A stretch of 64,000 nt of DNA, from assembly GCA_030609965.1 (NCBI GenBank), contig JAUWSQ010000002.1, positions 65,395 through 129,394 of the forward strand, in the 5' to 3' direction. Source of the stretch: Candidatus Fermentibacterota bacterium. GTDB lineage: Bacteria > Fermentibacterota > Fermentibacteria > Fermentibacterales > JCC-6. A model generated the notes under the pieces. It ran no database searches. It saw nothing but the letters and a program-made list of their open reading frames with translations, and was not told the origin of the DNA. The position numbers were made by a program, and so were the translations under genes. This document shows, piece by piece, positions 2,668-19,127 of the stretch (its first letter is position 1; each line of letters starts with the position of its first letter).

Positions 2668-4065
2668 ATGAACAGATCGCTTTCTGTAATGATCGTTGAT
2701 GATGAGAAGCCTATGCTGGAATGGCTTTCCATACTTCTGGAAGAGCATGGTTACGAAGTCTCCTGCTTTTCAACTGGAGAACAGGCTGTAGAAGCCGGCT
2801 TGAAATCCATACCGGATATACTTGTTGCTGATGTAAAAATGCCGGGAATAAGCGGTTTCGATGTTCTGACGCAGCTCCGGGAGAATTCTCCCGGTCTTAT
2901 CGGCATAATAATGACAGCCTTTTCAAGTGTGGACTCGGCAGTTAAGGCTATGCGAAAAGGAGCAACGGACTATCTTGTTAAACCCTTTGAAGTCGATCAG
3001 CTTCTGATCGCGATAGAGAAAGCCCTCTCCGAAAGGGATCTTAAAAGGGAGAACCTGGAACTCAGGAAAAGAGTCCGGTCAAAATACTCTATCGAGGAGA
3101 TTATAGGAAAATCCAGACCCATTGTTGAACTGCTTGAAAAAGTAAGGATAGTCGCGGACAAGAACAGCACAATAATTATCACTGGTGAAAGCGGTACAGG
3201 CAAGGAACTCATCGCAAGGGCTATTCACAGCATTGGTTCCAGATCTGACAAGCCCTTCTTCGGTGTCAGTTGCGGAAGTTTTTCCCGCAGTCTTCTCGAA
3301 AGTGAACTCTTCGGTCATCTTAAAGGATCCTTCACAGGCGCGTACAAGGACAAGGAAGGCCTCCTTGTAGCAGCAAGAGGAGGTACCTTCTTTCTGGATG
3401 AAATAGGCGAGCTTGACAGGGAGCTTCAGGTTAAACTGCTCAGAGCACTTCAGGAGCGTCAGGTACTTCCTGTCGGCGGAACCAGAAATGTCCCATTCGA
3501 TGCCAGGATCATAGCTGCGACCAATGCCGATCTTGCTGAAATGGTAAAGACCGATGATTTCAGAGCGGACCTCTATTACAGGCTGAACGTTATTCCTCTC
3601 CATGTTCCCGCCCTCCGGGAAAGAAGATCCGATATTCCCTTTCTTCTGGATAAATTCCTTCAGGACTATTCCGGAGAAACAGGCGATCAACTGAAAACGA
3701 TTACACCTGAAGCAAGAGTAATATTGTCGGATTACAGCTGGCCTGGAAATGTACGTGAGCTTGAGAACGTGGTTGAACGTCTTTGTGTGATGACACTTGG
3801 TGAGGAAATTGCAGTTGATGACATACCGGATTTCATCAGGTACCCAGGTGAAGCGGAACATGTGTCTGCTGGTTCCGGGATCATAACTGAACAGTCTTCC
3901 AGGAAGAACCCCACTCTGGATGAGATAGATAAAGCTTACACACTGTACGTGCTTGAACACCAGGCAAGAGGACAGAAACGCCTTGCTGCCAAGATCCTTG
4001 GTATTAACGAAAGTACCCTTTACAGAAAGCTGGAAAAATACGCGAGGGAAATGGATGATTCATGA
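2668..4065 (+). CDS. pilR: Sigma-54-dependent response regulator, PilR/NtrC family
   Basis: REC domain, AAA+ sigma-54 interaction domain (GESGTGKE, GSFTGA variant of GAFTGA, FLDEIGEL) and C-terminal Fis-type HTH (LGINESTLYRKLEKY). Start moved from the ORF-track 2635 to ATG 2668 (MNRSLSVMIVDD), right after the pilS stop. Confidence 0.9.
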   Translation: MNRSLSVMIVDDEKPMLEWLSILLEEHGYEVSCFSTGEQAVEAGLKSIPDILVADVKMPGISGFDVLTQLRENSPGLIGIIMTAFSSVDSAVKAMRKGATDYLVKPFEVDQLLIAIEKALSERDLKRENLELRKRVRSKYSIEEIIGKSRPIVELLEKVRIVADKNSTIIITGESGTGKELIARAIHSIGSRSDKPFFGVSCGSFSRSLLESELFGHLKGSFTGAYKDKEGLLVAARGGTFFLDEIGELDRELQVKLLRALQERQVLPVGGTRNVPFDARIIAATNADLAEMVKTDDFRADLYYRLNVIPLHVPALRERRSDIPFLLDKFLQDYSGETGDQLKTITPEARVILSDYSWPGNVRELENVVERLCVMTLGEEIAVDDIPDFIRYPGEAEHVSAGSGIITEQSSRKNPTLDEIDKAYTLYVLEHQARGQKRLAAKILGINESTLYRKLEKYAREMDDS

Positions 4066-5402
4066 AGCATATCCGTAGTATGTCTTTTCCAGCGATAGCA
4101 TTTTGTTTTCTGATAGTGTTCCTTATCGCTTTTCAGGCCGGTCAGAGGGGCATCCCCGTTGAAGACGGAGGTGAGTTTCTTACAGTTGCACGGCTGGGAG
4201 GCATTAACCATCCACCCGGCCTTCCCCTTCTGAGCCTTTCATCAAGACTGTCCTGGATACTCTTCGGCGAAGAGGGATTAAGAGTACTGTTCGCTTGTGC
4301 CGCAGCATCAGCTCTGATCCTCATAACAAAGAAGTACACAGTTTCCTCACTGTTCTTCCTTACAGGGGTTCTTCTATTACCTTCGATCGCAGGCAGACTT
4401 CTTATCTGGGATGCATACGGTTTTCTTTTTCTGATATACGCGGTTGCGTACTTCAGAAAACCGCCTCTCAACCTTGAAGCGGGATTCCTTCTGGGTCTTG
4501 CACTGGCGATTCACCCGCAGGGGATCTTCCTCATAGTTCTTTTTCGAAGAAATCGATCCTCAATATTGCAGTTCTTCTGTGGTCTCCTGCTTGGATTGAG
4601 TTTGTATCTTGCGCTACCCCTTTATTCAGCTTCGGGAGCAGTTGTAGACTGGGGCAGCACCGGAACACTGGACAATTTTGTAAGGCAGGTAACTGCGGGA
4701 GGATACAGGGAAGTCTACGGCGGGAAGATGTTCGGTATATCATATGATGTCCTTCTCCGGTATCTAGGATCCCTCTGGAAAATTGTCTGGCCTGTCCTGC
4801 TGCTGCCACTGATAACAGGAGTAATACAGCTTTTTAAAACCGACAGGAAACTACTGATCAGATTGGAAATTCTGGTTGTTCTTGATCTGCTGTTTGTGAC
4901 CATAATCAATCCCATGGCAGCTGGAACAACTCAGACGGCAATACTCTCGCTGTTCGTAGTCCTGGTGCTTGCCGCAGCAGGAATGAACTCCATATACAAT
5001 TGGAAGCGCATCGCTGGAGTGATCGCTGCAGGAGCCGTTCTTGCCGGGGGAATTCTTTTGTGGACCCCGCTGCCCGATCAGGAAAACGAAATAAGGGAGT
5101 ACTTCTCGTCCGCACCTTTCGAATCGGTTTTCTTTATAAGCAGCAACGATATTCTGTATGGCGGATGGGTTCTGAAATATGTGGAGGACAGAAGACCTGA
5201 TATCGTGCTGCTCTCCACCGGAAATTTTTCCGCCTGGTTTGAACGTATGGCAACATGGTTCAATCCAGAGGTAGATCTGTCTGCAGGTGTCCTGGATGTT
5301 GGTGATTTCAGCATGTCCCGCGAGGAATTAGCCGGTCGGCTGATAAACGCCGCAATCCTGGATAATCCGAATCGTCCGGTCTTCACAGATATCCAGCGAT
5401 AA
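4062..5402 (+). CDS. DUF2723 / TMEM260-like polytopic membrane protein (predicted GT-C glycosyltransferase)
   Basis: About 10 hydrophobic helices. The first-loop motif EDGGEFLTVARLGGINHPPGLPLLSL matches the D/E...HPPGYPL signature I associate with DUF2723. ATG 4062 overlaps the pilR TGA (4063-4065) as ATGA. Confidence 0.6.
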   Translation: MKHIRSMSFPAIAFCFLIVFLIAFQAGQRGIPVEDGGEFLTVARLGGINHPPGLPLLSLSSRLSWILFGEEGLRVLFACAAASALILITKKYTVSSLFFLTGVLLLPSIAGRLLIWDAYGFLFLIYAVAYFRKPPLNLEAGFLLGLALAIHPQGIFLIVLFRRNRSSILQFFCGLLLGLSLYLALPLYSASGAVVDWGSTGTLDNFVRQVTAGGYREVYGGKMFGISYDVLLRYLGSLWKIVWPVLLLPLITGVIQLFKTDRKLLIRLEILVVLDLLFVTIINPMAAGTTQTAILSLFVVLVLAAAGMNSIYNWKRIAGVIAAGAVLAGGILLWTPLPDQENEIREYFSSAPFESVFFISSNDILYGGWVLKYVEDRRPDIVLLSTGNFSAWFERMATWFNPEVDLSAGVLDVGDFSMSREELAGRLINAAILDNPNRPVFTDIQR

Positions 5403-5405
5403 GAA

Positions 5406-5436
5406 TGCATAATGAAACCTGATCTTGCATTATGCA
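5406..5436. promoter_or_regulatory. 9-bp inverted repeat (TGCATAATG / CATTATGCA, 13-nt spacer) just after the DUF2723 stop: weak terminator hairpin or activator-binding site
   Basis: Arms at 5406-5414 and 5428-5436 were read directly. There is no T-tract after it. It lies about 90 nt upstream of the sigma-54 promoter. Confidence 0.3.
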
Positions 5437-5524
5437 ATAGATACAATTTGTTTCTCCCTCCGGTATATCGCCTCGGTAAGTAATAATATGAGCTCACGCG
5501 GGATATTAAACGAAAAATCGGGTT

Positions 5525-5540
5525 TGGCAAAGATATTGCT
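5525..5540 (+). promoter_or_regulatory. Sigma-54 (-24/-12) promoter of pilin gene 1
   Basis: TGGCAaagataTTGCt has exact GG-N10-GC spacing of the TGGCAC-N5-TTGCW consensus. It lies 66 nt upstream of ATG 5606, and a PilR-type activator is encoded immediately upstream. Confidence 0.7.
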
Positions 5541-5605
5541 TCAATGTATAGTACTAATGAAAGTATGTGTGTGTTAACGTTAACCCGAAGTCGAAAGGAA
5601 TTATT

Positions 5606-5974
5606 ATGAAGAAAGGTTTCACGCTTATCGAGCTGATGATCGTTGTGGTCATCATTGGTATCCTTGCTGCCATAGCGATACCCAAGTTCTCAAGTGTAAA
5701 GGACCAGGCAGAGCAGGTTGCCTGCAGAAGCAACCTCAGGTCTCTCGGATCCGCTGAAGCCATGTACTACGGCATAGAGGGCACATATGGTAGTGTTACC
5801 GAGCTTGACAACTCCGATGTGATGGGAAATGCGTTAGCGATCACATGTCCGGTTGATGATGCTGGTTATGTAACAACAGTTGAAACTGCAACCACATACA
5901 CAATTCCATGTCCCTCTGCTGCCCCTCCTGTTACCCACGGTAGTATTGTAGATGGTATAGTTTCCTGGCAGTAA
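5606..5974 (+). CDS. pilA: Type IV pilin (prepilin-type N-terminal cleavage/methylation domain), 122 aa
   Basis: MKKG|FTLIELMIVVVIIGILAAIAIPKF class-III signal peptide with Gly(-1), Phe(+1), Glu(+5). RBS AAAGGAA upstream. Start moved from 5567 to ATG 5606. Confidence 0.9.
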   Translation: MKKGFTLIELMIVVVIIGILAAIAIPKFSSVKDQAEQVACRSNLRSLGSAEAMYYGIEGTYGSVTELDNSDVMGNALAITCPVDDAGYVTTVETATTYTIPCPSAAPPVTHGSIVDGIVSWQ

Positions 5975-5998: not shown

Positions 5999-6027
5999 CG
6001 GCGGGTCTAAAAGCCCGCCGTTTCTTT
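5999..6027 (+). terminator. Rho-independent terminator after pilin 1
   Basis: Stem CGGCGGG (5999-6005) / CCCGCCG (6014-6020), 8-nt loop, followed by TTTCTTT. Confidence 0.75.
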
Positions 6028-6039
6028 GATCAGTGCACT

Positions 6040-7917
6040 TTAAAGGTTTGATGGACAGAATTCGTAGATCGTATACCCATCGATATACGCAACCGGTGCA
6101 AGCACATCTCCCCGGCCGATTCTTGAAAAGAGTTCAACGGAGTTCTCATCATCAAATGGGGAAGGGTTATTGTACAGAGTGATAATGTAATTTACATCCA
6201 ACTCTTCAAGAATAGCAACTTCATCAGCAAGACTGTTGTCCAGATATATATGAGCAGCAAGAGGATATCGCCATGCATTAATCCATCTGTGATTGGAGAA
6301 ATAGCGTTTTGTCACATAGAACGAGAGTACAGTAGTGTTACTCGGAAGATGGGAATTCATCCAGAGTGTTACTTCTAATTCGGGCTGTTTCTCGACAAAC
6401 TCAAAATTGGATATCTTCCAATCGCTGGTTATGTAAGATTCGATCAGTCCGTTTCTGAATTCCAATCCATAATGTTCCGTTGGTGAAATGGAAGTGTCGT
6501 AAATGAAATATACTATTACTGTCAGTATAGTCGCAGAAAGCAGACCGTATTTCAAGTGCCTGAACATTTGCAGACCGAACAGGGTGGCAAAAGGAATAAG
6601 CATTATTGCGTATTTTGCACCCCACCATGCAGGATAAAAAAGAACCAGAGAGATAATCGCGTAAACTGCAAACCCCGCCAGTATCAGTGTTCTTCCGGTT
6701 ATGTATTTTCTCTTAATGGTGAGAAGAAATCCCCCTATAAGAAGAAAAATGGAAGAGTTCCAGGTTCCAAAGTAGTGGTAGATGTTCTGAAAGAATCCCA
6801 CAGTCGGGAAAAAATATGAACTTCTATCAGCGAACGTATTGTAAGTAAGATGCACTTCAGGCATTCGCCATTCAGGTTTTAGAAGAAACTTGAACAGTGT
6901 ATAAGGGTATAGAAAAGTGCCAGTATGGATAAACGTTCGCAGCGCGAATATCAGTGGCATTATTGAAAGCATGATAATACCTGAGACAATGAAAGTTTTA
7001 TTATGTTTATTCCACAATATAATATACATATACATTATAATAAATGGAACTAGCGCAAAGTATACTGTCAATTTTGATGTCAACGCCAGGCTCATTACAG
7101 CAAAGGCTGATAAGTCGTAATGATCATCCTTATCTAATATCTGTTTTAAAAGAATGGTCAGGGCAATTGTAACAAAGAAAAGTGCAGTTGCATCCGGTTT
7201 GGCAAAATGGCACCATAGAAGAATCGTTGAGCATCCGGCAATGCTGATCAGTGCAGCTGGATACCATTTCCATCCGAATCCAAGTATTGCCATGCAGAAC
7301 AGGATTAATGCAATAGTCATGCTCAGTTCAAAAAGCTGCCCAAGAATAAGTTGATCTACTCTGTTATCTGCGAGTGAAGATGGCAGTAACAGAAGTATTT
7401 CCGAAGTCAATGGAAAAGCAGAAAATCTTGTTTCATCAAGAAAGCTCATGTGACCGTCGTTCAACCATCTGTCGGGTTGAACCAGATAGGTGACCTGTGT
7501 ATCGTTGAAGTTCATTTCCGGACGCCCCGCCAGCATCAGGTTTGTAAGCAGAATGTATCCTGCAAGAAGGAAAGGGAGGATAATAACAGGATGTTTCAGG
7601 TGAAATCTGAAATTGGAAAAGAACTTTTTCAGCCGTAAGTAAAATACCACCAGCCCGGCCAATGCTCCGGGTATGATGGAGATGGGCAGAATTCTTCTTG
7701 TAAGTAAATGAAACAATGACAGAAGTACTATTACTCCCATATATAGAAGCATTCCGGGGATGACCGCAGGCATCAGCCTGAAGTACTTTTTCACTACTCT
7801 GATTCGCTTCGTCAGCGAACCTGTTCCATAAAAGGCAAGCCATATCATCGCTATACGCAGAAGAGACCAGGCAAGCGAGTTGATGCTGAGCCAGTCCGTC
7901 AGAGTCGTATCAGCCAT
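6040..7917 (-). CDS. Polytopic membrane protein with a C-terminal soluble domain, GT-C-like (predicted); paralog of 23997-25841
   Basis: 625 aa with more than 12 hydrophobic helices. Alignable by eye over its full length with the 23997-25841 product, e.g. VTYLVQPDRWLNDGHMSFLDETRFSAFPL vs VTYAVQPDRWLSSGRIFYIEESIFSGLPS, and C-terminal LPSNTTVLSFY..RYFSNH vs LPAGSTLLSLW..RYFSDH. Convergent with pilin 1. Confidence 0.5.
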   Translation of the reverse strand: MADTTLTDWLSINSLAWSLLRIAMIWLAFYGTGSLTKRIRVVKKYFRLMPAVIPGMLLYMGVIVLLSLFHLLTRRILPISIIPGALAGLVVFYLRLKKFFSNFRFHLKHPVIILPFLLAGYILLTNLMLAGRPEMNFNDTQVTYLVQPDRWLNDGHMSFLDETRFSAFPLTSEILLLLPSSLADNRVDQLILGQLFELSMTIALILFCMAILGFGWKWYPAALISIAGCSTILLWCHFAKPDATALFFVTIALTILLKQILDKDDHYDLSAFAVMSLALTSKLTVYFALVPFIIMYMYIILWNKHNKTFIVSGIIMLSIMPLIFALRTFIHTGTFLYPYTLFKFLLKPEWRMPEVHLTYNTFADRSSYFFPTVGFFQNIYHYFGTWNSSIFLLIGGFLLTIKRKYITGRTLILAGFAVYAIISLVLFYPAWWGAKYAIMLIPFATLFGLQMFRHLKYGLLSATILTVIVYFIYDTSISPTEHYGLEFRNGLIESYITSDWKISNFEFVEKQPELEVTLWMNSHLPSNTTVLSFYVTKRYFSNHRWINAWRYPLAAHIYLDNSLADEVAILEELDVNYIITLYNNPSPFDDENSVELFSRIGRGDVLAPVAYIDGYTIYEFCPSNL

Positions 7918-8832
7918 TCACTGTTCCTGGCTGTTTGCAGGAAAACTGAAATTGTACTTCAGATATTCATATACTACCGGCAATCTGAGACTTCCAGTAT
8001 CCCGCTGCTCAATTGAGACGTAATACTCGGCATCGTATTCATCCGTTACCAGTACAGAATAGTATCCCGGATTCAGTTTCGCTATTATGTGTTCTCCGGG
8101 CTGAAGTGCAAGGTTATCAAGGTAAATACCATTCGAACCATCCTGAGGTACTATCTGCAGCTCCGTAATCACTGCAATTGGCAGACAGTTCTCTAAAAAG
8201 AACGGTCTGCTGCCATTTCCCGTTATTCCAACCGGCGGCAGAGGATTGATCAGCATACTGCTGACTATAGCCAGCATGCAACTGTCATCAGGGACGGTGA
8301 TATTATCTGTATTGTATTTTCTACCGATCTGATCTACAGCATTGATCGAATAGATACCTTTTTCAAGCCAGATACTGATAGAGGTTCCGGAGAAAACTCT
8401 GAAGTCGTCTATTAAGATATCCTGCTCACGCATTGATGAAGAGAGTACGAGTGTATCCAGAGCAAAGCCGTTCAGCGAATTAGTCAGGTTCAGCAGGTGA
8501 TGTCCATGATCAACATTCGGTCTTCCGAACGTAATGTATTCCAGGTCAATTGTAATAGAATCGGGTACGTTTTTCTGAAAATCTCCGGCGATACCGTAGG
8601 AGTTGCCCAGTTCATCAAATGCGAGGAAATTGCATTTTCCTGATGGCAGAGTAAACGTAATACTTGAGTCCGGTTGTAAATTGGAATACAGTCTGTTATC
8701 CCCTTTGCTGTTATGTCCTGAACCCCATATGTAGAAACTTACAATTTCGATATCTCTTAATCCGTTGATAACGGTTAAATCATGCAGACCTGCCTGATTT
8801 GGAACAGAAATAGAAAGCAGTGTTAAAAGCAT
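7918..8832 (-). CDS. Secreted hypothetical protein built of three ~85-95-aa tandem repeats
   Basis: Hydrophobic N-terminus. Three repeats share the pattern L.PG/SG...(Y/F).h.h.D..G..Y (LPSGKCNFLAFDELGNSY / LEKGIYSINAVDQIGRKY / LNPGYYSVLVTDEYDAEY). Its stop abuts the start of 6040-7917 with zero gap. Confidence 0.5.
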   Translation of the reverse strand: MLLTLLSISVPNQAGLHDLTVINGLRDIEIVSFYIWGSGHNSKGDNRLYSNLQPDSSITFTLPSGKCNFLAFDELGNSYGIAGDFQKNVPDSITIDLEYITFGRPNVDHGHHLLNLTNSLNGFALDTLVLSSSMREQDILIDDFRVFSGTSISIWLEKGIYSINAVDQIGRKYNTDNITVPDDSCMLAIVSSMLINPLPPVGITGNGSRPFFLENCLPIAVITELQIVPQDGSNGIYLDNLALQPGEHIIAKLNPGYYSVLVTDEYDAEYYVSIEQRDTGSLRLPVVYEYLKYNFSFPANSQEQ

Positions 8833-8891: not shown

Positions 8892-9725
8892 TCACTTTTG
8901 AGCAATTAATTTGAAGTATTTATAAAGATTCCTGGACAATGGCAGCATAGATTTTAAATAATCGTCAAGAGCAATTGCCAATTCTGAGGATATATTATGC
9001 ATAATGTTTCCCTGACCAAGAAACCAGGTAAAATGTGCGGCAGCAGATTTAAAACCAATTACGCGCAAGAAATCCTCAAGCCAGTCTGACTTAATTCCCC
9101 CTTTTGCTGATGTTTGAAATTCCGCCATGGAAACAGTATCTGCTGATATCTTATACTTCTCCTCCAAAGCACTGGCTACATCATGAACAGACACAACTTC
9201 TGTTCTTAAGGATTCAGATACATCAATTTTATCAATTGCAGTTTTCTCGAGTTCCGAAAAGCAGTACCAATTAGGATCGGCATCACTATACAAATATCCA
9301 CCCAATCGCAAAATGCGAAAAACCTCGTGCATTGTAGGTTCTATATCTGGCAGATGATGCAGAAAAGAATAAGCCGTACACACATCAAATGACTCATCAT
9401 CGAATTGCATGTTTTCTGAATCACTGATATACGTCATTACATTCGCTGCAGGTTTGATCTCATCCAACATCGCTTTAGTCAAATCAATACCTACAACTTT
9501 ATCAAAATATTTCTTCGCAATATCAATAACGAATCCCGTTCCACATCCGATATCCAGTAAACTCCCCCCACCTGTTTTTTCAGCAAGATCACTGATAATT
9601 TTCTCCACGCGACTCTTATTCTCTGCTCTATAGTGAGGTTGCTCTGTATTGTAAGTTGATGCCATACTGGAATGATATTCAATATTTGCCTGCTTGATCA
9701 TTTTTGATAACTTCATGTCAGTCAT
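8892..9725 (-). CDS. Class I SAM-dependent methyltransferase
   Basis: Motif I LLDIGCGTGF, followed by VVGIDLTKAML. Confidence 0.8.
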   Translation of the reverse strand: MTDMKLSKMIKQANIEYHSSMASTYNTEQPHYRAENKSRVEKIISDLAEKTGGGSLLDIGCGTGFVIDIAKKYFDKVVGIDLTKAMLDEIKPAANVMTYISDSENMQFDDESFDVCTAYSFLHHLPDIEPTMHEVFRILRLGGYLYSDADPNWYCFSELEKTAIDKIDVSESLRTEVVSVHDVASALEEKYKISADTVSMAEFQTSAKGGIKSDWLEDFLRVIGFKSAAAHFTWFLGQGNIMHNISSELAIALDDYLKSMLPLSRNLYKYFKLIAQK

Positions 9726-9728
9726 GAA

Positions 9729-10811
9729 TTACTCCTCTTTCTTACTAAGATAGACAGGCATCGATAATTCTTCTGGTAGGATAAATCTTTCAACCAGCCC
9801 TCGAACCACTTCACCATATTTGTAGGATACTGGATTTACCGGTTCACCTAATAAATGATGACGAATTAAAATGTCAGGTTCGTTATAATCTGCTAATGCG
9901 CGGAATGCAGTTGTGCCAGAAAAGCGCGGGTTTATCTCAAATACGTACATATCTTCACCATCAACGCGAAGCTGAATATTCAGTGGACCCATTGAACCAA
10001 CAGCTACAGCCAGACGCTCACATTCCGATGCGATTTCAGGTAGATCTTCAATCGCACCTTGCGAAATACCTGAAGAAATTGCGAGTGTTTGTCCAGCATA
10101 TTTGCCAATACGCCCTCTTACCTTCATCCTGTTGGAAAGTCCACTCATTATGCGGCGGTGCACAACAAGAGAATCTATCAATCCGCCATCAAGTGTTGTC
10201 AAAACACCAACAGTATACTCATCATCAAATGTACCTAAATATTCCTGAGCAATGGGTAACATCCCGGCTTTGAGAATGTATCGAGAAAAAAATCGAGCTT
10301 CTTCCATGTCCTGTGCAATAAAGACAAGATTACTACCACCACTGCCCACTGAAGGCTTCAGAACAACTGGCATTCTCCTTATTTTTGTGCAATCATTCTC
10401 GCTTTTTAGTAATACGGATTGTGGAGATTTAAATCCATTGTTTGTCAGAAAACTATTTGTCTTCCACTTATCTGTGCATATATCAATAACATTGGCATTA
10501 TTGATGAGTGTTAATATGTTATTATTGGTGAATATTTGACGGTTTGCTGAAACTACTTTCATTTCTGATTCTGACCCGGGAATTAACACTTGAACATTTC
10601 TTTTCTCACAAAGTCTTAATAAGATATCAATATATTCAGGATCTAAGGCTGGTGGTACGATATAGGCTTCGTCTGCCTGATATAATCCAAGACTTGCTGG
10701 ATTCATATCAACACCGATGATGTGATATGATGTCTTTGCCAACCGCAGTGCTTTCATCACTTCATTTCCAATACTGCCACCACTAACACCAGTAATAACT
10801 ATATTTATCAT
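9729..10811 (-). CDS. ATP-grasp domain protein (carboxylate-amine ligase type)
   Basis: 360 aa. Rossmann-like N-domain (MINIVITGVSGGSIG), central PVVLKPSVGSGGSNLVF, C-terminal YVFEINPRFSGT typical of ATP-grasp enzymes. Confidence 0.75.
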   Translation of the reverse strand: MINIVITGVSGGSIGNEVMKALRLAKTSYHIIGVDMNPASLGLYQADEAYIVPPALDPEYIDILLRLCEKRNVQVLIPGSESEMKVVSANRQIFTNNNILTLINNANVIDICTDKWKTNSFLTNNGFKSPQSVLLKSENDCTKIRRMPVVLKPSVGSGGSNLVFIAQDMEEARFFSRYILKAGMLPIAQEYLGTFDDEYTVGVLTTLDGGLIDSLVVHRRIMSGLSNRMKVRGRIGKYAGQTLAISSGISQGAIEDLPEIASECERLAVAVGSMGPLNIQLRVDGEDMYVFEINPRFSGTTAFRALADYNEPDILIRHHLLGEPVNPVSYKYGEVVRGLVERFILPEELSMPVYLSKKEE

Positions 10812-10843
10812 ATCATGTGATCTTGAATATATAATGATTACTC

Positions 10844-11533
10844 CTATCTTGTTCGTGTTAAAATGTCAATGAGATTATGTTTGTAACCTAATGTTGTTAA
10901 ATGCTTGCAAACAGCATTAACATCATATGGTACGCGTCTAATATCGACATTACAAGTTCCAGTTTCCACAATTGCATAAGATGCGGAAGGATTATAGTCT
11001 CTAGGTTGACCACATGAACCTGGATTTACCAGCAATACATGACCCACTCTTTGAACGATTGGAATATGAGTATGCCCCATAATTACGATATCAGTATCAA
11101 ATTCGGCAAAGCGTTCAAAATCAGTATTATCAGGATAAATATACTCTTCAACATCCCACGGACTACCATGACACAAAATCCAGTTCAATCCACCTTTCTC
11201 AAAGATTCTTTGAGTTGGTAAACCGGACAGCCATTCAGTATTCTTTTCAGAAATTATTCGTTCAATATAATCCAGTTTATATGAGAACCAGAGATCCTCT
11301 GAAATTGATATCTCACGCAGGAGATAGCAGTCATGGTTACCCGACACGCAAGTGATATTCCTCGATTGCAGAAGTTCAAATACTTCATTCACATAAGGAT
11401 AATAACCAACGAAATCCCCAGCTATCAGTATATGATCGATATCCAGACGTTCCATATCATTTAATACAGCATTCAAACCCAGACTATTACCATGAATATC
11501 AGCGATAACACCAATCCGCAAATTATCCTCCAA
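10844..11533 (-). CDS. Metallophosphoesterase (YfcE/MJ0936-like)
   Basis: Motifs IADIHGN, AGDFVGY, GNHD, GHTH, NPGS. Confidence 0.8.
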   Translation of the reverse strand: MEDNLRIGVIADIHGNSLGLNAVLNDMERLDIDHILIAGDFVGYYPYVNEVFELLQSRNITCVSGNHDCYLLREISISEDLWFSYKLDYIERIISEKNTEWLSGLPTQRIFEKGGLNWILCHGSPWDVEEYIYPDNTDFERFAEFDTDIVIMGHTHIPIVQRVGHVLLVNPGSCGQPRDYNPSASYAIVETGTCNVDIRRVPYDVNAVCKHLTTLGYKHNLIDILTRTR

Positions 11534-12428
11534 CTTTCATAGCATCCAGGCAATGCTGTAATCCTTTTGTTAATGAAGTCCTGGGTGCATAATGCAGGAT
11601 ATTCAGAGCTTTCTCAATTGAATACTCAACTCTGTAATTCTCCTGAGAATCTGCTGTGTCCGAGTAAATAATCCTTGATTTGCTCTCTTGTTCAACAGAC
11701 AATACTGTTTTTGCCAGTTCAGACATAGTGATAGAATTTCCGCTGGCAATATTGTATACGCCAGATGCTTTTTTCTGAAAGGCTAACCATATTGCTTGAA
11801 GCACATCATCAACATAAGTAAAATCCTGTGTGCGGTTCCCTGAACCATATAGTGTTATGTTTCTTGACTCAAATACAGCCCTTAGAAAAATGTTTATTAC
11901 AGTTCTTGCTTTCTGGTAGGGCCCATATGGTGCAGATACTCGCAAACTAGACGTAGATAAACCATATCGTATATGTGCTATATCAAGTAGTAATTCACCA
12001 ACATATTTCGACAAAGAATACGGATTGTTTGGTTGAGGAATCAAATCTTCGGTCAGGGGGATAGTATTTTCTGTACAGTAAACAGAAGAACTGGAGGTAT
12101 ATATAATTGATGAATTATCTGGAATTGCAATTGCAATAGTATTCTGCATCATATATATGTTATCTAAAAATGATTCATCAGCTTCCGATGATTTAAAAGA
12201 TGAAGGAATCGATGCTGCAAGGTGAAAGATTGTATCAAAGACTGGCTTGTCCTTGCGCCATTCTGCAACTTTTTCCGCTGAAGTCAAATCCACGCTATCC
12301 ACGTGAACACTATCAACCTGACCACCGTTCCTGGATATGCACCATAACTCAAGTCCAGATTGCCGCATGAGAAATCTGACCAGATGTTTCCCTATGAAAC
12401 CCGTAGCTCCAGTTATAAGAACATCCAT
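11523..12428 (-). CDS. NAD-dependent sugar epimerase/dehydratase (extended SDR)
   Basis: VLITGATGFIGKHL glycine-rich loop, YSLSK (YxxxK) catalytic motif, GGAGG RBS 6 nt upstream of the ATG. Confidence 0.8.
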   Translation of the reverse strand: MDVLITGATGFIGKHLVRFLMRQSGLELWCISRNGGQVDSVHVDSVDLTSAEKVAEWRKDKPVFDTIFHLAASIPSSFKSSEADESFLDNIYMMQNTIAIAIPDNSSIIYTSSSSVYCTENTIPLTEDLIPQPNNPYSLSKYVGELLLDIAHIRYGLSTSSLRVSAPYGPYQKARTVINIFLRAVFESRNITLYGSGNRTQDFTYVDDVLQAIWLAFQKKASGVYNIASGNSITMSELAKTVLSVEQESKSRIIYSDTADSQENYRVEYSIEKALNILHYAPRTSLTKGLQHCLDAMKVGG

Positions 12429-12744
12429 ACTTTACCTCCAGTAGAATTCGGGTTGATAATTGGTGATCAGTTTCCACCAGACATATTTAAGATCATCTTT
12501 CCAGTCGTTTTTCTGTTCATGATTCTCTTTCTTTTGCTCCAGTTGTCTATCCTGTCCAGGTCTTGAGCAGAATATTCACACTACATATTATTAGCGCAAG
12601 TACCTGAAGTGAGTGACTGATTCATATATGACTCTTTTCAAAAGTATCAGCAATCTACTGAATTGAAGAGCTAGGGAGCGTGAGTACACCTTTAAAATAC
12701 TGATATGATGCGATTATCTGTACTGGACTACTTATTTATATCCG

Positions 12745-14508
12745 TTAATAGTCAGGCCTGGATACGAGTTTGAACAGAATATAGCTATCATCAGTTAAAA
12801 CTGGATAAAGATTGAAAGAGACAAAATTTCTCCATTGCTCAAGTTCATTTGCGGACAATTCCGGAGTAATATTTATTGAGGTAATAAACATATCCATGGC
12901 CAGATGAGTTATTCCGCTTTCCCGCAGTGAGTTCGCAATATCTTCGGAATCCATTCCAGACCACAGCATCTCCATCAGTTCAAACGGTACTACTCTATGA
13001 TCGAAAACAGCATATCCGGGAAAATAGAATGGACGGCTCATATTAACCATAAGTGTAGTATCACTTTCAGTTATGTAACGATCACATTTCTGAAAGAAAT
13101 GATAATAAAGCACATTTTCATCAAGGTATGTTACATCATTCTTATATCTCCATGGTTTTTCATACTCGTAAAGATTTATAATTTTTACTGCTGACCAGAT
13201 CATGCAAATTGTAATCAGGACAATCGCAGTATCTCGTAGAAATTTGTTTTTAGTAATCAGAAGATTCTCGAATGATTCGGCAACGGGAATTGATAGCATT
13301 ACAAGGCCTGGAAGCAGGTATCGAACCCTGACAGCTGCTCCATTAGCGATCAGTGTGATAATCATGTAAAGAAACGGCAGCAGTAATTTCTTCCGTCTAT
13401 CCTTTACAACTGCAAAAGCAAGAATCGTACCCGCCAGCAGTAATGGTCCGCTAGCTCCATCAAACAGAGCAGGATTGTTCCATTCGCCATGAAGCGATAT
13501 TCGGACAGGAAGCAGAAGGTAATCCAGAATTCCGTGAAGAGAGGTACTGAAAGTATTCAAGGCATAATACTCTGCCGCTCTGCTGGTCACAGTAATATTC
13601 GGGTTGAAAATGCCCTGCAAGAGTGGGTATACCTGATTTCCCCATTGCAGAATATTTGGAATTGCCCACCATGCTGAAATAAAGAATGCGGAGAATATAG
13701 AATAAAGAATTGTTTTCCTGGTCATATTTCTGAAGTAAAACGGGAGAAGTATGCAGACAATTGCCAGCACAATGAATCCGTTGTACTTACAACAGCTTGC
13801 ACCTCCAGCCCATATTACAGCAAGGAGGGGATTGCCATCTTTTCTGATAAATTCAACATATGCGAGCAATGAAAAGAAAATAAGAAAAGAATCAGAATAG
13901 CTCCATGTCGCATTCCGAACAAGTTCGGGGATACTCATAAGTACTATCAGAGAAAGAACCGCTGTTTTCCTCCTTCCTTTCCGCAGAAAGTAACCTGTAA
14001 GCACGGAACAGGCAGAAAGAAATCCAAGTAGACTGACGACTCTAGAAACTCTGAATCCGAATGTTCCTCCTGCAATCGAATAGAACGATTCAACCAGATA
14101 TGGATAGCTGAAGATTCCGGACCACTCCGGTCTGACAATCCTTCCTGCTTCAAGCCAGATCCTGGCCTGATACAGATGATGAATCATGGCGTCTCTGGAA
14201 AAGGGTGGGAGAAGAACAAGAGGGAAAAGTATCAACCCACAGAGCGCTATCATTACGCCGCCTCCAGGCATACTGAAGCGTCCTGGTCGAACCCATAGAA
14301 TTGTTCCGATTGCAAGGATTGCCCATAGCAGGGCAGATACCATAAGCCCTGACCATCCGGCAGCAGATACAAGGAAAAACATCAGCAGACTTCCTGCGCC
14401 GAATTTTCGAGACCACGATTCCGAGTGAGGAAGCACCAGAACTCCATACCCGCTGATGGATATAGCCGCTACCGAGAAGAAGATTGAAGTAGTGATGAAC
14501 GTGATCAT
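12745..14508 (-). CDS. Polytopic membrane protein, GT-C / ArnT-PMT-like (predicted)
   Basis: 587 aa with more than 12 helices. First-loop acidic/aromatic segment PFSRDAMIHHLYQARIW...SYPYLVE. C-terminal soluble domain. 4-nt overlap with the upstream flippase-like gene. Confidence 0.5.
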   Translation of the reverse strand: MITFITTSIFFSVAAISISGYGVLVLPHSESWSRKFGAGSLLMFFLVSAAGWSGLMVSALLWAILAIGTILWVRPGRFSMPGGGVMIALCGLILFPLVLLPPFSRDAMIHHLYQARIWLEAGRIVRPEWSGIFSYPYLVESFYSIAGGTFGFRVSRVVSLLGFLSACSVLTGYFLRKGRRKTAVLSLIVLMSIPELVRNATWSYSDSFLIFFSLLAYVEFIRKDGNPLLAVIWAGGASCCKYNGFIVLAIVCILLPFYFRNMTRKTILYSIFSAFFISAWWAIPNILQWGNQVYPLLQGIFNPNITVTSRAAEYYALNTFSTSLHGILDYLLLPVRISLHGEWNNPALFDGASGPLLLAGTILAFAVVKDRRKKLLLPFLYMIITLIANGAAVRVRYLLPGLVMLSIPVAESFENLLITKNKFLRDTAIVLITICMIWSAVKIINLYEYEKPWRYKNDVTYLDENVLYYHFFQKCDRYITESDTTLMVNMSRPFYFPGYAVFDHRVVPFELMEMLWSGMDSEDIANSLRESGITHLAMDMFITSINITPELSANELEQWRNFVSFNLYPVLTDDSYILFKLVSRPDY

Positions 14509-15425
14509 TTCAATCTCTTGTTTGAGAAGATTTTTTCGGTGATAACAGAAACAGCCACAAGAAAAAGCTCAACTGCTGTGGTAATAAGTCGTATGGCGAT
14601 TACACCCACAATTACAGTTGGCATTGGAATAAATGCTGGCAGGATAAGAAACAGCACACCTTCGCGGATACCTATGCCACTGGGGGCAAAAAATGCTGCA
14701 AGACCGATTAATCCCGCGATGCTGTAGATACCTGTAATGCTTAAGTAATATTTGAAACTTACCGGTGAAAGGGAGTTGAAAATAAGAAAGAGCGCGAAAC
14801 CCGATAGAAGAAAAGCAACAATATATGCTCCAATAAAAAGTAGAATATTTCTGAATGTTGGGACTTCAAGTAATGGATCTCTCTTAATTAACCGTAGTCC
14901 CCGATTTGTCAGTTTTCTTAAAAATGGTGGATATAGAGCAAACAGCATCAATGCAGCGCCAACACCGGCTATCCACCGTACATATTCTGGAATACTCGCG
15001 GGAGAAAAGGAAAGTGAAATCAGCAACACCAGACAGGAAGCGGTAATGGCTACAATGTATTCAATTATTGTAGCAACTGCCACTTTGCTTTTTGAAAAAC
15101 CGCGGTATGCATCCATTCTTACAAGTAAGAGTGCGATTTTTCCGGGAACGTACTTTCCAAGATACGAAAGAAACCATCCCCTTGCGGCTTTGATCATCGG
15201 GACGTGCAAACCCAGAGTAATCGTAAGCCGGTGCCAGATAAGAAAACAGAAAATATAGTTTATTACAATGAGCGCAGAACCTGCAATAAAATATCCATAT
15301 TTTAATTCAAAATCATATCTGGATATTTCAGAAATATTCTTCCACACAACCGCGATAACCGCCATTATTACGATTGAAAGAAGAAGTCTACTGTACCATT
15401 TTGTTTTTATATTAACTTTATGCAT
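14505..15425 (-). CDS. UPF0104 / LPG_synthase_TM (MprF flippase-domain-like) membrane protein
   Basis: 306 aa, about 8 TM helices. The motif YLGKYVPGKIALLLVRMDAY is characteristic of this family. Confidence 0.65.
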   Translation of the reverse strand: MHKVNIKTKWYSRLLLSIVIMAVIAVVWKNISEISRYDFELKYGYFIAGSALIVINYIFCFLIWHRLTITLGLHVPMIKAARGWFLSYLGKYVPGKIALLLVRMDAYRGFSKSKVAVATIIEYIVAITASCLVLLISLSFSPASIPEYVRWIAGVGAALMLFALYPPFLRKLTNRGLRLIKRDPLLEVPTFRNILLFIGAYIVAFLLSGFALFLIFNSLSPVSFKYYLSITGIYSIAGLIGLAAFFAPSGIGIREGVLFLILPAFIPMPTVIVGVIAIRLITTAVELFLVAVSVITEKIFSNKRLK

Positions 15426-15485
15426 TCTATGACACTAATATATCTAAGTTAATCATTTGAAACGATATTTCATGATTACTGAAAT

Positions 15486-16892
15486 TCATTGGCATGAATC
15501 AGAATGAGAAAAATCAACAATTAATTTTTCCAATTCCGGTTTATCAGACAAACAAAGGCCTTTTTTGCCTGCTTGCTTCAGAAATCCTTCGAGTAGCGCT
15601 TTTACATTATGCTCAGATATCCCGCATCCATTAACATATCGAATATCGTTAGGATCATAAAGCCATTCTTCAGGATAATCATCATTGATGACTCGCAGGA
15701 ACAGTTCCGCTACTCGTTCAGGAGCCCAGTGTTTCAATACGAATTTCTGTGCCTTCTTCCCCAACTCAACTCTATAATCATGATTCGTGATAAGTTTTTC
15801 GATTGCTGTTTCAATTTCATCGGGGTGGTGATATTCGGTAGGAGGGATTGCTGCACCAGGCAGGTATCCCATATTCTCGATTGATGCGTAACCGCCGACC
15901 ACTGCGGGTTTCCCCAAAAAAGCACCTTCAGTAGCCAGACCCGCCATTACTGCGTCAGAGTATAATTGATCGATAACGAAATCACAGTCAGCCAGTTCCC
16001 TCAATACTTCTGAATTGGGTTTTCCGACTATTTCTATGAATTCAATGGCATATCCTTTGTTTTTCATTTTCCTGATAATATCTCGAAAAATCCCTGATCC
16101 CTTGAATTCTGAAAAGGAGGGAGCATGCACAATCCGAAGGATCTCCTTTTTCTCCTTTATACAATCATCAATATCTTTTTCAATTTTGTAATGAAACGGA
16201 TTTCCGATAGTGAGATATCGAACAAATCTCTTCTCAAGAAAATGTGAACTCGGAGGATGGGCTATGATAATATCGGCGTAGAATTCTATTCGTTTAACCC
16301 ACTTCTTTTGTTTTTTTGTAATCCTGATACATTTTTCAATCGAACAACCGAAATCTTTGGAAATACTGGAACCACTTATGTAGGGGGGTCTCGTATCACT
16401 ACCATGAAATAACCAAATAATTTTCTTCCCAAACAGTTTTAGTATTGGTAAGTCATACATTTCAAAAAAGGATGATGTGCCGTGGAAGAAGGAAGATGTA
16501 CCGTGAAACACAAATACATCACACCAGAACAATGACCATATGAATATTGCCAATCGAAGTGGGAACACTATCATCACAAGCAATAAGGTCCACCAGAGTT
16601 CACAGATTGATTTATTTTTCTTTGATGATATTTTCCGAGATAAGATGTAATCCATCAACAGCATATACAGGTTTTTATTATTATCTTCATTTCCATATTT
16701 AAATGGGTGAGCATCAATGCTGAAGAAGTATGATTTAACGCCAAGTTCATCAAAACCCTTTTTCAGATTTGTATAATATCCTGCAACTTCACCAATTCCG
16801 AGGAAAATTCTGTGTTTTCTGTGGCTTTTCATGTTCGAATATTCCGTATCATTCAATCCAATATCAGTTTGATAGTGTATTTTGCAGAACAC
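15486..16892 (-). CDS. Glycosyltransferase, GT-B-like C-terminal half with an N-terminal membrane segment
   Basis: The C-terminal half (ILRIVHAPS...KGSG...IEFIEIVGKPNSEVLRELADCDFVIDQLYSD..GLATEGAFLGKPAV) resembles GT1/GT4 C-domains. Alternative start ATG at 16832 (MKSHRK). Contains the in-frame HGTSSFF x2 duplication. Confidence 0.5.
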   Translation of the reverse strand: MFCKIHYQTDIGLNDTEYSNMKSHRKHRIFLGIGEVAGYYTNLKKGFDELGVKSYFFSIDAHPFKYGNEDNNKNLYMLLMDYILSRKISSKKNKSICELWWTLLLVMIVFPLRLAIFIWSLFWCDVFVFHGTSSFFHGTSSFFEMYDLPILKLFGKKIIWLFHGSDTRPPYISGSSISKDFGCSIEKCIRITKKQKKWVKRIEFYADIIIAHPPSSHFLEKRFVRYLTIGNPFHYKIEKDIDDCIKEKKEILRIVHAPSFSEFKGSGIFRDIIRKMKNKGYAIEFIEIVGKPNSEVLRELADCDFVIDQLYSDAVMAGLATEGAFLGKPAVVGGYASIENMGYLPGAAIPPTEYHHPDEIETAIEKLITNHDYRVELGKKAQKFVLKHWAPERVAELFLRVINDDYPEEWLYDPNDIRYVNGCGISEHNVKALLEGFLKQAGKKGLCLSDKPELEKLIVDFSHSDSCQ

Positions 16893-16925
16893 CGGGTGAA
16901 GATCTTCTATGACCGCGTATTTTTC

Positions 16926-18011
16926 TTACATCCTCTTTAGTATTTCTGCTATGTACTCGATATCTTCGTATTTCAGGTGGTCTCCGATAGGCAGTGCCAA
17001 TCCCTTTTTGTAAGCCTGTTCAGCAACAGGGAAATCACTGTCTTCATAGCAGTATTTCTTTCTATAGTATGTTACGCAATGCAGTGCATGAGCACCGTAA
17101 TTCGTCTGAACACCATTATCAAGTAAATTTGCAATCAATTTATCACGATCAATTATCTCATCCAGAAGGATATGATACGTTTGATAAACATTTTTTCTAT
17201 CAGGAAAAGTATCGGGAGTTCTGATATATTCGCAATTATCAAGGAGTTTGTTATAACTATGCGCCATTTCAATTCTGCTCTCGATTGCTTTTTCAATATT
17301 ATCCATCTGAGCTAATCCGATAGCCGCCTGAAAATCCGTCATCCTATAATTCAATCCGGCATGAGTAAAGTCTTTTTTAGATGATATACCATGGTTTCGC
17401 AAGGCTCGAACCTTATCCGCAAAATCACAGTCATCTGTAACTATCAAACCGCCTTCACCGGTTGTAATAGCTTTGCGTGGATGGAAACTGAAACAACCGG
17501 CAATTCCGAATGTTCCTGTTTTTTTACCATTGTATTCAGTGCCGAAAGCACAGGCTGCATCTTCGATTACCATGAGATCGTATTTCCGGGCTATTTGCAT
17601 TAAGTGTTCAATATCAGCAGACTGTCCGAATTCATGCACGGGAATTATTGCCTTTGTTCTATCCGTTATTCTTGAGGTTATCCTGGAAACATCAAGGCAA
17701 TAATCATTGAAGTTGATATCAACCAGAACAGGTACCGCACCCACAATTTCTATCACATTAGCAGTAGCTGGAAAAGTGAAAGCGGGAATGATTACTTCAT
17801 CACCTTCTTTAATCCCCAGGGCCATCAGGCAGAGATGAAGTGCCGCTGTTCCGGACGAAACAATTATTGAGTAATTTATATTCAGATAATTCTGTAATGC
17901 TGTCTCAAATTCCCTTACATATTTGCCCTGCACCAGATCACCGGATTTGAATATTTTTCTTACATGATTAATAGCAGCTTCCGGTATAGTTGGTTTTGCC
18001 AGTCTAATCAT
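16926..18011 (-). CDS. DegT/DnrJ/EryC1/StrS-family PLP-dependent sugar aminotransferase
   Basis: [38 protein letters not shown] (active-site Lys). Resembles PglE/PseC/ArnB-type enzymes more than WbpE. Confidence 0.9.
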
Positions 18012-18957
18012 TCTGTTTGAACCATTTCGCTGTCCTTCTTATACCCTCATCCAGATCAATATCTGCTTTGAAATCGAGCATTCTTAATGCTTTTTCCACA
18101 GATGGTATTCTAAGCTCAATCTCTGCCGACAGGGCAGGTTTGAAAACAATATCCGAACTGGAATCCAAAACTCTGCAGACAGTTTGTGCAAGTCCATATG
18201 TAGTAACAACTGCTCTGGAATTGCCAATATTGAAAGATTCTCCGATTGCTGCAGGATATTCGATACACTTCATCAGACAGTTGACGAAATCCTCCACATA
18301 ACACCATGCGCGAATCTGATTTCCGTCGCCGTAAATATGTATTTCTTCATTCTTTAATGCTCGCTTAATAAAAACCTGTATTGCACCTTCACCTGTTTGG
18401 CCCGGTCCATATACATTAAAAGGACGAACGGAAACAACAGGTAGCCCGAATTCCCTGAAATAAGCAATTGAAAGGTGTTCACCTGCAAGCTTACTGACAG
18501 CATATGTCCATCTGGCCTCTCCTGCGCTGCCGGCAACAGTATCTGCATCCTCCGTCGATTTGAATGCCATACTGCCGAAAACTTCAGAAGTGGAGAAGTC
18601 CACAAAGCGATCTTTTATACCCTGAACCTTTGCAGCTTTCAGTACATTGGCGGTGCCAAGCATGTTTACTATCATCGTTTGAGTAGGTACTTTGATAACA
18701 GTATCTATTCCTGCAATAGCAGCGGCGTGAATAACAATATCAGCGCCTTTCATACTTTCCAGAACTTTTTCATAATCAAGAACATCACCCTTAATAATTT
18801 CAATGTTCAGGTGAGTATCATATCCGCTACCGGTTAACGTATCCCGATGGAAATTATCATATATTGTTATGTGGTTATCATTTATCAATCTTGAGATAAT
18901 AGTGTTTGCAATAAAACCAGCTCCACCGGTTATGAATATTTTCTTATTTGTTATCAT
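18004..18957 (-). CDS. Extended-SDR sugar-nucleotide enzyme, ArnA C-terminal/UDP-glucuronate decarboxylase-like
   Basis: [27 protein letters not shown] (compare ArnA PRWIYSVSK), [23 protein letters not shown]. Confidence 0.7.
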
Positions 18958-19127
18958 CTCATCTGTCCTTAATCATTAATGCGAATAAATATTTATCTGT
19001 TTCAGTACAGCCAGTACAGAGTTACTCTCAATACTCCAGAGAACATAGTTTCAAATCCGGAATCATCATTCCTTTCATCCTGGTTAATTAATATTGCTTG
19101 CAGCCAGATCTCTTATAAGTCAAGAAG

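Follow-up and report, generated by a model that had tools for sequence, protein, structure and literature searches.

A TPR-less relative of TMEM260 encoded between pilR and pilA as a candidate pilin O-glycosyltransferase in Fermentibacterota

The closest characterised relative of the protein considered here is, by homology, human TMEM260, a protein O-mannosyltransferase of the DUF2723 family (PF11028; PDB 9rql, 9rqm and 9rqn; PMC10214176), and the closest enzyme by role is TfpW of group IV Pseudomonas aeruginosa, a GT-C pilin D-arabinofuranosyltransferase encoded beside pilA (bioRxiv 10.1101/2020.04.19.049825). The protein, referred to below as X, has 446 amino acids (aa) and is encoded at 4062-5402 on the forward strand of a 64,000-nucleotide (nt) stretch of DNA from a Candidatus Fermentibacterota bacterium (assembly GCA_030609965.1, contig JAUWSQ010000002.1, positions 65,395 to 129,394), which we call the window and whose numbering is used for loci and coordinates throughout; aa numbers are those of the precursor unless marked as mature. 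X lies between the genes for a PilR-like regulator and a type IV pilin, and the comparisons reported below suggest that it is a probable pilin O-glycosyltransferase, adding a sugar to the pilin.

Cryo-electron microscopy of TMEM260 resolved a GT-C core, a luminal Rossmann-like ‘palm’ and tetratricopeptide repeat (TPR) ‘fingers’, and mutagenesis found D52, H67, R264, Y267 and D441 to be essential, with D52A and substitution of H67 abolishing activity, R355A leaving ~20% and mutation of the asparagine ladder of the TPR domain leaving ~10% (bioRxiv 10.64898/2026.03.17.711096). X shares with TMEM260 the GT-C core, the Rossmann-like domain, the counterparts of D52, H67 and Y267 and an RPD motif, but is 446 aa long compared with 707 aa, lacks the TPR fingers, does not keep R264 or R355 and has Asn aligned with D441, one residue before an invariant Asp; moreover it is bacterial, and is proposed to act in the periplasm and on a pilin rather than on IPT domains. 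Like X, TfpW is a multi-pass GT-C protein whose first periplasmic loop carries an acidic motif and whose gene adjoins that of the major pilin; it is the product of a pilin-allele-specific accessory gene and O-glycosylates pilin Ser/Thr from a polyprenyl-phosphate sugar. Unlike X, however, TfpW is encoded downstream of pilA, has 646 aa and a TPR domain, and both adds and polymerises D-arabinofuranose, whereas the X gene precedes pilA, is coupled to pilR and encodes no TPR domain, such that the two are likened by role and fold class only. PglL and TfpO are also membrane enzymes that O-glycosylate pilins, as is proposed for X, but are of another fold and family (Wzy_C). These enzymes transfer preassembled undecaprenyl-diphosphate-linked oligosaccharides en bloc. 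Like tfpW, tfpO adjoins pilA (bioRxiv 10.1101/2020.04.19.049825).

Of bacterial relatives the human TMEM260 study says only that there are ‘distant homologs in bacteria’, and our literature search found DUF2723 mentioned in that study only, with no bacterial function given there, in agreement with a preliminary description of the window, made from its letters alone, which knew of no established function for a bacterial member. What appears to be new here, as judged from sequence, is a TMEM260-family enzyme in a putative pilin-accessory role that has lost the TPR domain, is encoded upstream of pilA and coupled to pilR, and has a candidate acceptor Ser that co-varies with it.

Position of X between pilR and pilA

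The X gene stands in a run of type IV pilus genes on the forward strand, comprising the 3′ part of pilC for the platform protein (3-956; PF00482, T2SSF, E 2.8e-59), a gene for a PilS-like sensor histidine kinase (1011-2666; HisKA and HATPase_c, with a weak PAS match), one for a PilR-like sigma-54-dependent response regulator (2635/2668-4065; Response_reg, Sigma54_activat, AAA_lid_14 and HTH_8), X itself and, after a gap of 203 nt, pilA1, which encodes a major-pilin candidate of 122 aa (5606-5974; PF07963 (N_methyl) and TIGR02532; prepilin start MKKG/FTLIELM). The pilR start is ambiguous, ATG 2668 being possible and ATG 2635 giving a 32-nt overlap with pilS. The ATG of X (4062-4064) overlaps the TGA stop of pilR (4063-4065), forming ATGA. 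The gene order, this overlap and two X peptides had been recorded in the preliminary description, and all were recovered from open reading frame (ORF) and Pfam domain calls and from direct reading of the ATGA, the peptides lying at aa 33-39 (VEDGGEF) and 48-57 (INHPPGLPLL).

We examined 33 X loci, three on long contigs (L001-L003) and 30 fetched individually. On the long contigs, where X is 46-52% identical to that of the window, the order is pilB-pilB-pilT-pilC-pilS-pilR-X-pilA, with the PilS-like kinase keeping its position. Wherever the flank was long enough, pilR upstream and/or pilA downstream of X was present in all 33 loci, with pilA downstream in every locus with sufficient flank, and in the loci examined X occurred in no other genomic place than beside pilR/pilA. 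Of 27 complete junctions, 23 have the start of X overlapping the end of pilR, by 4, 8, 11, 14 or 23 nt; in L018-L021 (genomes G020, G029, G035 and G016), a subclade of the window's genus, there is instead a pilR-X spacer of 54-117 nt. The pilR-X-pilA arrangement is more than chance. In a genome search, G035 and G016 each had one in-frame stop in the aligned N-terminal region of X, probably upstream of the true start. Across the phylum, pilC orthologues are 70-93% identical, and pilR orthologues were found in 56 of 70 genomes.

The X-pilA1 spacer contains a 9-bp inverted repeat (5406-5414 and 5428-5436, read from the sequence) with the palindrome TTGCA-N3-TGCAA (5425-5437). Its TTGCA...GCAA does not vary across the corresponding spacers of L001-L003, which with the window makes four distant genomes, and the palindrome is a probable candidate for the PilR enhancer or binding site of the phylum. 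A sigma-54 promoter-like element, TGGCA-N6-TTGC (5525-5539, forward strand), lies 66 nt upstream of pilA1; it is the single match in the 64-kb window, yet at least one match occurred in 39 of 100 shuffles, and its TGG...TGCT core is kept in the three distant loci L001-L003. Since pilA has its own predicted sigma-54, PilR-type promoter, X would be part of the pilSR transcription unit rather than that of pilA, and we infer that pilR and X are co-transcribed.

Family, fold and conserved residues of X

A direct Pfam scan of X returned PF11028 at 20.7 bits (E 3.8e-4), below the 24.2-bit gathering cut-off, over aa 35-88 (profile positions 1-57 of 179), and an NCBIfam scan of X gave no meaningful match; a precomputed PF11028 match exists for four X orthologues. 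Since the direct scans were sub-threshold, family membership was assigned by profile methods. A word-indexed search found 95 close homologues of 43-88% identity, mostly of ~400-470 aa with a few shorter fragments, and those with a source name were all from Candidatus Aegiribacteria or Fermentibacteria; the next-best matches (E 1e-12 and weaker) bear PF11028, with TPR repeats in 3 of 6. A profile built from 29 X-family members (41-84% identity to X) was searched against 1.84 billion representatives and returned 9 close ones only, then a gap, then 3536 remote ones. All of the ten nearest remote relatives tested were PF11028 members (46-141 bits), several with TPR. When the X family was aligned with 30 PF11028 proteins using hhalign, the probability was 100% (E 1e-48, 424 columns), with X 7-444 covering template columns 7-467 of 707. 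Sequence searches of the PDB with X gave human TMEM260 as the sole match (E 2e-3 with the single sequence, 1.4e-8 with the profile), X profile positions 28-388 corresponding to TMEM260 residues 46-469. The preliminary description had recognised X as DUF2723 by its peptide signature, and the hhalign result, the remote relatives and the TMEM260 match in the PDB uphold that call, although the Pfam score of X itself falls short of the cut-off.

An AlphaFold (AF2) model of X had a mean predicted local distance difference test score (pLDDT) of 89.4 and a predicted template modelling score (pTM) of 0.89. Foldseek comparison of this model with the PDB gave seven matches at a probability >0.9, all of them GT-C enzymes (STT3, PglB, ALG12 and DPY19), and TMEM260 itself was not listed. 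No TPR match was found in X by Pfam. A Wzy_C-type O-oligosaccharyltransferase was ruled out, there being no Wzy_C match to X in Pfam or NCBIfam. Taken by Pfam, profile and structure-model evidence, X (4062-5402) is a divergent, TPR-less subfamily of the DUF2723/TMEM260-like GT-C glycosyltransferases.

Residues of X were paired with those of TMEM260 from alignments to 9rql_A, and conservation was counted in the 29 X-family members. The first periplasmic loop carries the motif E34-D35-G-G-E38...H50-P-P-G-L-P55 (4161-4226, forward strand), which corresponds to the TMEM260 sugar-recognition motif (SRM), D35 matching D52 and H50 matching H67, and both residues are invariant. Y215-R216 (4704-4709, forward strand) lie in the loop equivalent to the TMEM260 donor-binding loop (DLL), where the counterpart of Y267, Y215, is invariant and conservation of R216 reaches at least 90%. 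Of the mannose-contacting set, D, H and Y are kept in X and R355 is not. From the secondary structure of the model and hhalign, aa 340-446 (5079-5399, forward strand) form a C-terminal alpha/beta Rossmann-like periplasmic domain with no TPR after it; within it N362-D363 (5145-5150, forward strand) align to the region of the TMEM260 catalytic base D441, D363, one residue past the D441-aligned N362, is invariant, and R378-P-D380, the counterpart of RPD457-459, is likewise invariant. By these alignments the palm and most of the donor-side machinery are retained in X, the acceptor-recruiting domain has been lost, and the catalytic base may be shifted by one position. Given the homology over the GT-C core and into the Rossmann-like domain, and the kept counterparts of D52, H67, Y267 and RPD, a polyprenyl-phosphate monosaccharide donor is probable. 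We regard it as highly likely that X is an active family member; very probably it acts with an acceptor recognition different from that of TMEM260 and, by analogy, it probably modifies Ser/Thr on an extended peptide.

Pilins with and without X, and DUF2723 genes elsewhere

Orthologues of X were found in about half of the 70 phylum genomes, in the genera g1, g4, g5, g6, g9, g10, g11, g12 and g14, and the search of these genomes returned none in g2, g3, g7 and g8. In X-lacking genera pilC-pilS-pilR is followed directly by pilA, with spacers of ~150-320 nt, as seen in 17 genomes. Assembly gaps were ruled out as the cause of the missing X in g7 and g8, the short pilR-pilA spacers being directly visible. 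Lineages without X occupy at least two positions in a PilR tree: g7 and g8 make up one clade, whilst g2 and g3 group with the X-bearing g1, apart from other genera that have X (support 97/97).

We aligned 35 distinct pilins from X-bearing loci with 21 from X-lacking ones and ranked the columns by how far Ser/Thr was in excess among the X-bearing pilins. The top-ranked column was the Ser of a C-terminal H-G-S motif, Ser113 of pilA1 (mature Ser109; codon 5942-5944, forward strand), which is the proposed O-glycosylation site. This Ser is present in 35/35 X-bearing pilins, deeply diverged paralogues included, vs 1/21 X-lacking ones (counts uncorrected for kinship), in which N, Q, E, H, D, I or V stands at the position; the motif reads HGY in the one complete g2 pilin and HGE in the g3 pilin. 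The His-Gly of the motif is conserved in X-bearing and X-lacking pilins alike. An invariant Ser that turns freely variable without X is what an acceptor site would look like.

Partnerships of a DUF2723 gene with a major pilin were also found outside the phylum. GTDB species genomes were scanned with a motif from canonical DUF2723 proteins and 80 diverse loci were kept; in six of these a major-pilin gene is directly upstream of the DUF2723 gene, the genomes being Levyibacteria, Gottesmanbacteria, other Patescibacteria and one metagenome-assembled genome labelled Gammaproteobacteria. Four of the six (L110, L119, L138 and L139) are pilB-pilT-pilC-pilA-DUF2723 operons, continued by pilD in L110 and by further pilin-like genes in L110, L138 and L139. 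These Patescibacteria enzymes share with X the family and the partnership with a major pilin but, unlike X, they are full length (666-685 aa), are encoded downstream of pilA and score above the Pfam cut-off (79-92 bits for L110, L119 and L138), and their role is a predicted one; the L119 protein has weak TPR matches and that of L138 a helical-repeat match. In L138 a YfhO-like membrane protein gene is convergent on the DUF2723 gene. By X-profile score the pilin-linked Patescibacteria proteins rank 18-66 of 84. They are thus not the closest relatives of X, and the pilin association looks to have been recruited more than once; a shared origin of X and these enzymes is unsupported by the ranks. 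Within the phylum, a canonical DUF2723 gene with an open frame of 1032 aa (PF11028 at 122 bits) is present in the window's own genome (C80:14675-15220, locus L004), and paralogous frames of ~950-1130 aa occur in most phylum genomes, X-lacking ones included.

The preliminary description had proposed that X is a regulator-coupled, pilus-dedicated glycosyltransferase. That proposal gains support from the survey of pilR neighbourhoods, with its pilR-X-pilA synteny and start/stop overlap, and further backing from the kept TMEM260 residues, the pilin Ser that tracks X and the apparently independent DUF2723-pilin linkage in Patescibacteria. We estimate a probability of roughly 0.6 that X is an active, polyprenyl-phosphate-sugar-dependent GT-C enzyme that has lost the TPR domain and serves as a dedicated type IV pilin accessory. 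The pilin is, by the same comparisons, its favoured substrate, whilst the assignment of Ser113 as the modified site is tentative, with the odds somewhat against it.

In the mechanism that we propose, X would be translated from the pilS-pilR mRNA at a low, regulator-like level, coupled to the pilR stop, and would already be in place in the inner membrane when the separate pilA promoter is switched on by PilR and sigma-54. A lipid-linked (polyprenyl-phosphate) monosaccharide would be bound in the transmembrane core of X via D35, H50 and Y215, and the periplasmic Rossmann-like domain, with N362/D363, would position the extended C-terminal segment of the membrane-anchored (pre)pilin. The sugar would then pass to a Ser hydroxyl, which on this scheme would most probably be Ser113 of H-G-S, on the periplasmic side of the inner membrane and ahead of pilin assembly, and the loss of the TPR recruiting domain would be made up for by the permanent genetic pairing of X and its substrate.

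Other genes around the pilins and competing explanations

Further putative glycosyltransferases adjoin the pilins of the window. Convergent on pilA1, beyond a terminator-like GC-rich hairpin with a T tract between the two genes (6000-6028; read from the sequence and absent from the list produced by the scan), is the gene for M625 (6040-7917, reverse strand), a 625-aa membrane protein whose AF2 model (pLDDT 76.8) has a GT-C fold, with DPY19, STT3, PglB, ArnT and AftA as Foldseek matches. PDB sequence searches with M625 and with M522 (below) gave no match, and it was via the structural model that M625 was recognised as GT-C. A 304-aa protein without a family match is encoded by an ORF abutting the M625 start (7918-8832, reverse strand); the pair is kept in L003, and in L038 and L039 similar ORFs of 306-320 aa directly adjoin the M625 homologues. 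A second pilin gene, pilA2 (21925-22284, forward strand; 54% identity to pilA1), encodes a paralogue that keeps the C-terminal HGS...SW motif, and its prepilin cleavage site has Ala, not Gly, at -1 (MNRRA/FTLIELM). It is flanked by the genes for M522 (22289-23857, reverse strand), a 522-aa putative glycosyltransferase with a weak match to a Leptospira putative glycosyltransferase family, and M614 (23997-25841, forward strand), a 614-aa paralogue of M625 by sequence comparison (31% identity). The layout of M625, M522 and M614 recurs in L003, in which the two pilin modules are close together.

Between the two pilin modules of the window is a block of ~13 kb of sugar-modification genes (8892-21607, reverse strand). 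Among their products are a methyltransferase, an ATP-grasp enzyme, a metallophosphoesterase, two SDR epimerases, a DegT aminotransferase, an MprF-like membrane protein, a hexapeptide acetyltransferase, a GFO/IDH oxidoreductase and a GT2, encoded at 19128-20081, with a weak resemblance to polyprenyl-phosphate-sugar synthases. As the block is absent from the fetched L003 stretch, it looks like a variable insert.

A number of observations weigh against X being a pilin glycosyltransferase. With respect to the enzyme, TMEM260 R264 is not kept, aligning with the invariant A212, with the conserved R216 following just after Y215, whilst R355 (transmembrane helix 10) falls in an insertion with no X counterpart; D441 pairs with N362 (Asn in 28/29) in both hidden Markov model alignments; and X ends after the Rossmann-like domain, without the TPR domain on which TMEM260 depends to recruit its acceptor. 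With respect to the pilins, the covariation of the HGS Ser rests on few independent events and on the uncorrected counts given above, and other columns also differ between the X-bearing and X-lacking groups. Three remote DUF2723 genes outside the phylum (P0096, P0097 and P0100) had no pil genes nearby; a general DUF2723-pilus link was rejected on these contexts, and the link is therefore specific to certain clades. Finally, the GT-C protein M625, its paralogue M614 and the putative glycosyltransferase M522 also flank pilins, for which reason we rate the step ‘X glycosylates pilin’ no higher, and homologues of M625 adjoin pilA in the X-lacking g7 and g8 too. It may be that several enzymes modify these pilins.

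The explanation that best survives beside pilin glycosylation, though we consider it unlikely, is that X is an active TMEM260-type enzyme working on another target (minor pilins, the secretin, an S-layer, another envelope protein, or a lipid or glycan) and merely co-regulated via the pilSR operon. It would account for X being in the pilSR unit whilst pilA has its own predicted sigma-54 promoter, it fits the fact that canonical DUF2723 genes are often away from pil genes (P0096/P0097/P0100 and 74 of the 80 sampled loci), and the other GT-C enzymes that adjoin the pilins could serve them in place of X. However, a general envelope target sits poorly with X being found nowhere but between pilR and pilA, with the loss of X coinciding in separate lineages with the loss of one specific pilin Ser, and with both deeply diverged pilin paralogues of X-bearing genomes keeping that Ser.

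It is more doubtful again that M625, M614 or M522 glycosylates the pilin and that X acts up- or downstream in the same pathway, for example by extending or priming the glycan on the polyprenyl carrier or on the glycosylated pilin. The GT-C fold of M625 and its convergence on pilA1, the flanking of pilA2 by M522 and M614, the conservation of this layout in L003, and the glycan-synthesis island between the two pilins with its GT2 resembling polyprenyl-P-sugar synthases would all suit such a division of labour. Yet the island is absent from L003, where X is still present, and M625 and X are no obligate pair, M625 being retained in g7 and g8, which lack X; furthermore, the TMEM260 family adds a single sugar to protein, and X keeps the protein-facing Rossmann-like domain.

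That X is a non-catalytic membrane partner, acting as an accessory or chaperone of the pilin in the manner of TfpY or TfpZ, or as a PilS co-sensor of the membrane pilin pool, is very improbable, for although X is translationally coupled to the regulator pair and not to the pilin, has lost the TPR domain and has no aligned counterpart of the donor-binding R264 and R355, the residues for catalysis and donor binding (D35, H50, Y215, D363 and RPD) are invariant down to 41% identity.

DUF2723/TMEM260-like proteins are widespread in bacteria, with >3500 representatives in our profile search. If X does glycosylate the pilin, then the pilin would be the first candidate substrate, and pilin modification the first assignable function, for the bacterial DUF2723 branch; the family would be able to work without TPR when enzyme and substrate are genetically paired, and the co-loss of X and Ser would amount to a natural experiment pinpointing the substrate and site of a bacterial DUF2723 protein. 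A wider proposition, for which the chances are not far short of even, is that, beside PglL/TfpO and TfpW, the TMEM260 family offers a third, as yet unpublished enzymatic way of O-glycosylating type IV pilins. In Fermentibacteria this would take a minimal, TPR-less and PilSR-coupled form modifying a single HGS Ser, the enzyme and the acceptor Ser being gained or lost as a cassette. In other bacteria pilin glycosylation is described as altering phage susceptibility and surface properties (bioRxiv 10.1101/150227), so that X-dependent pilin glycosylation may have ecological consequences for this uncultured anaerobic phylum.

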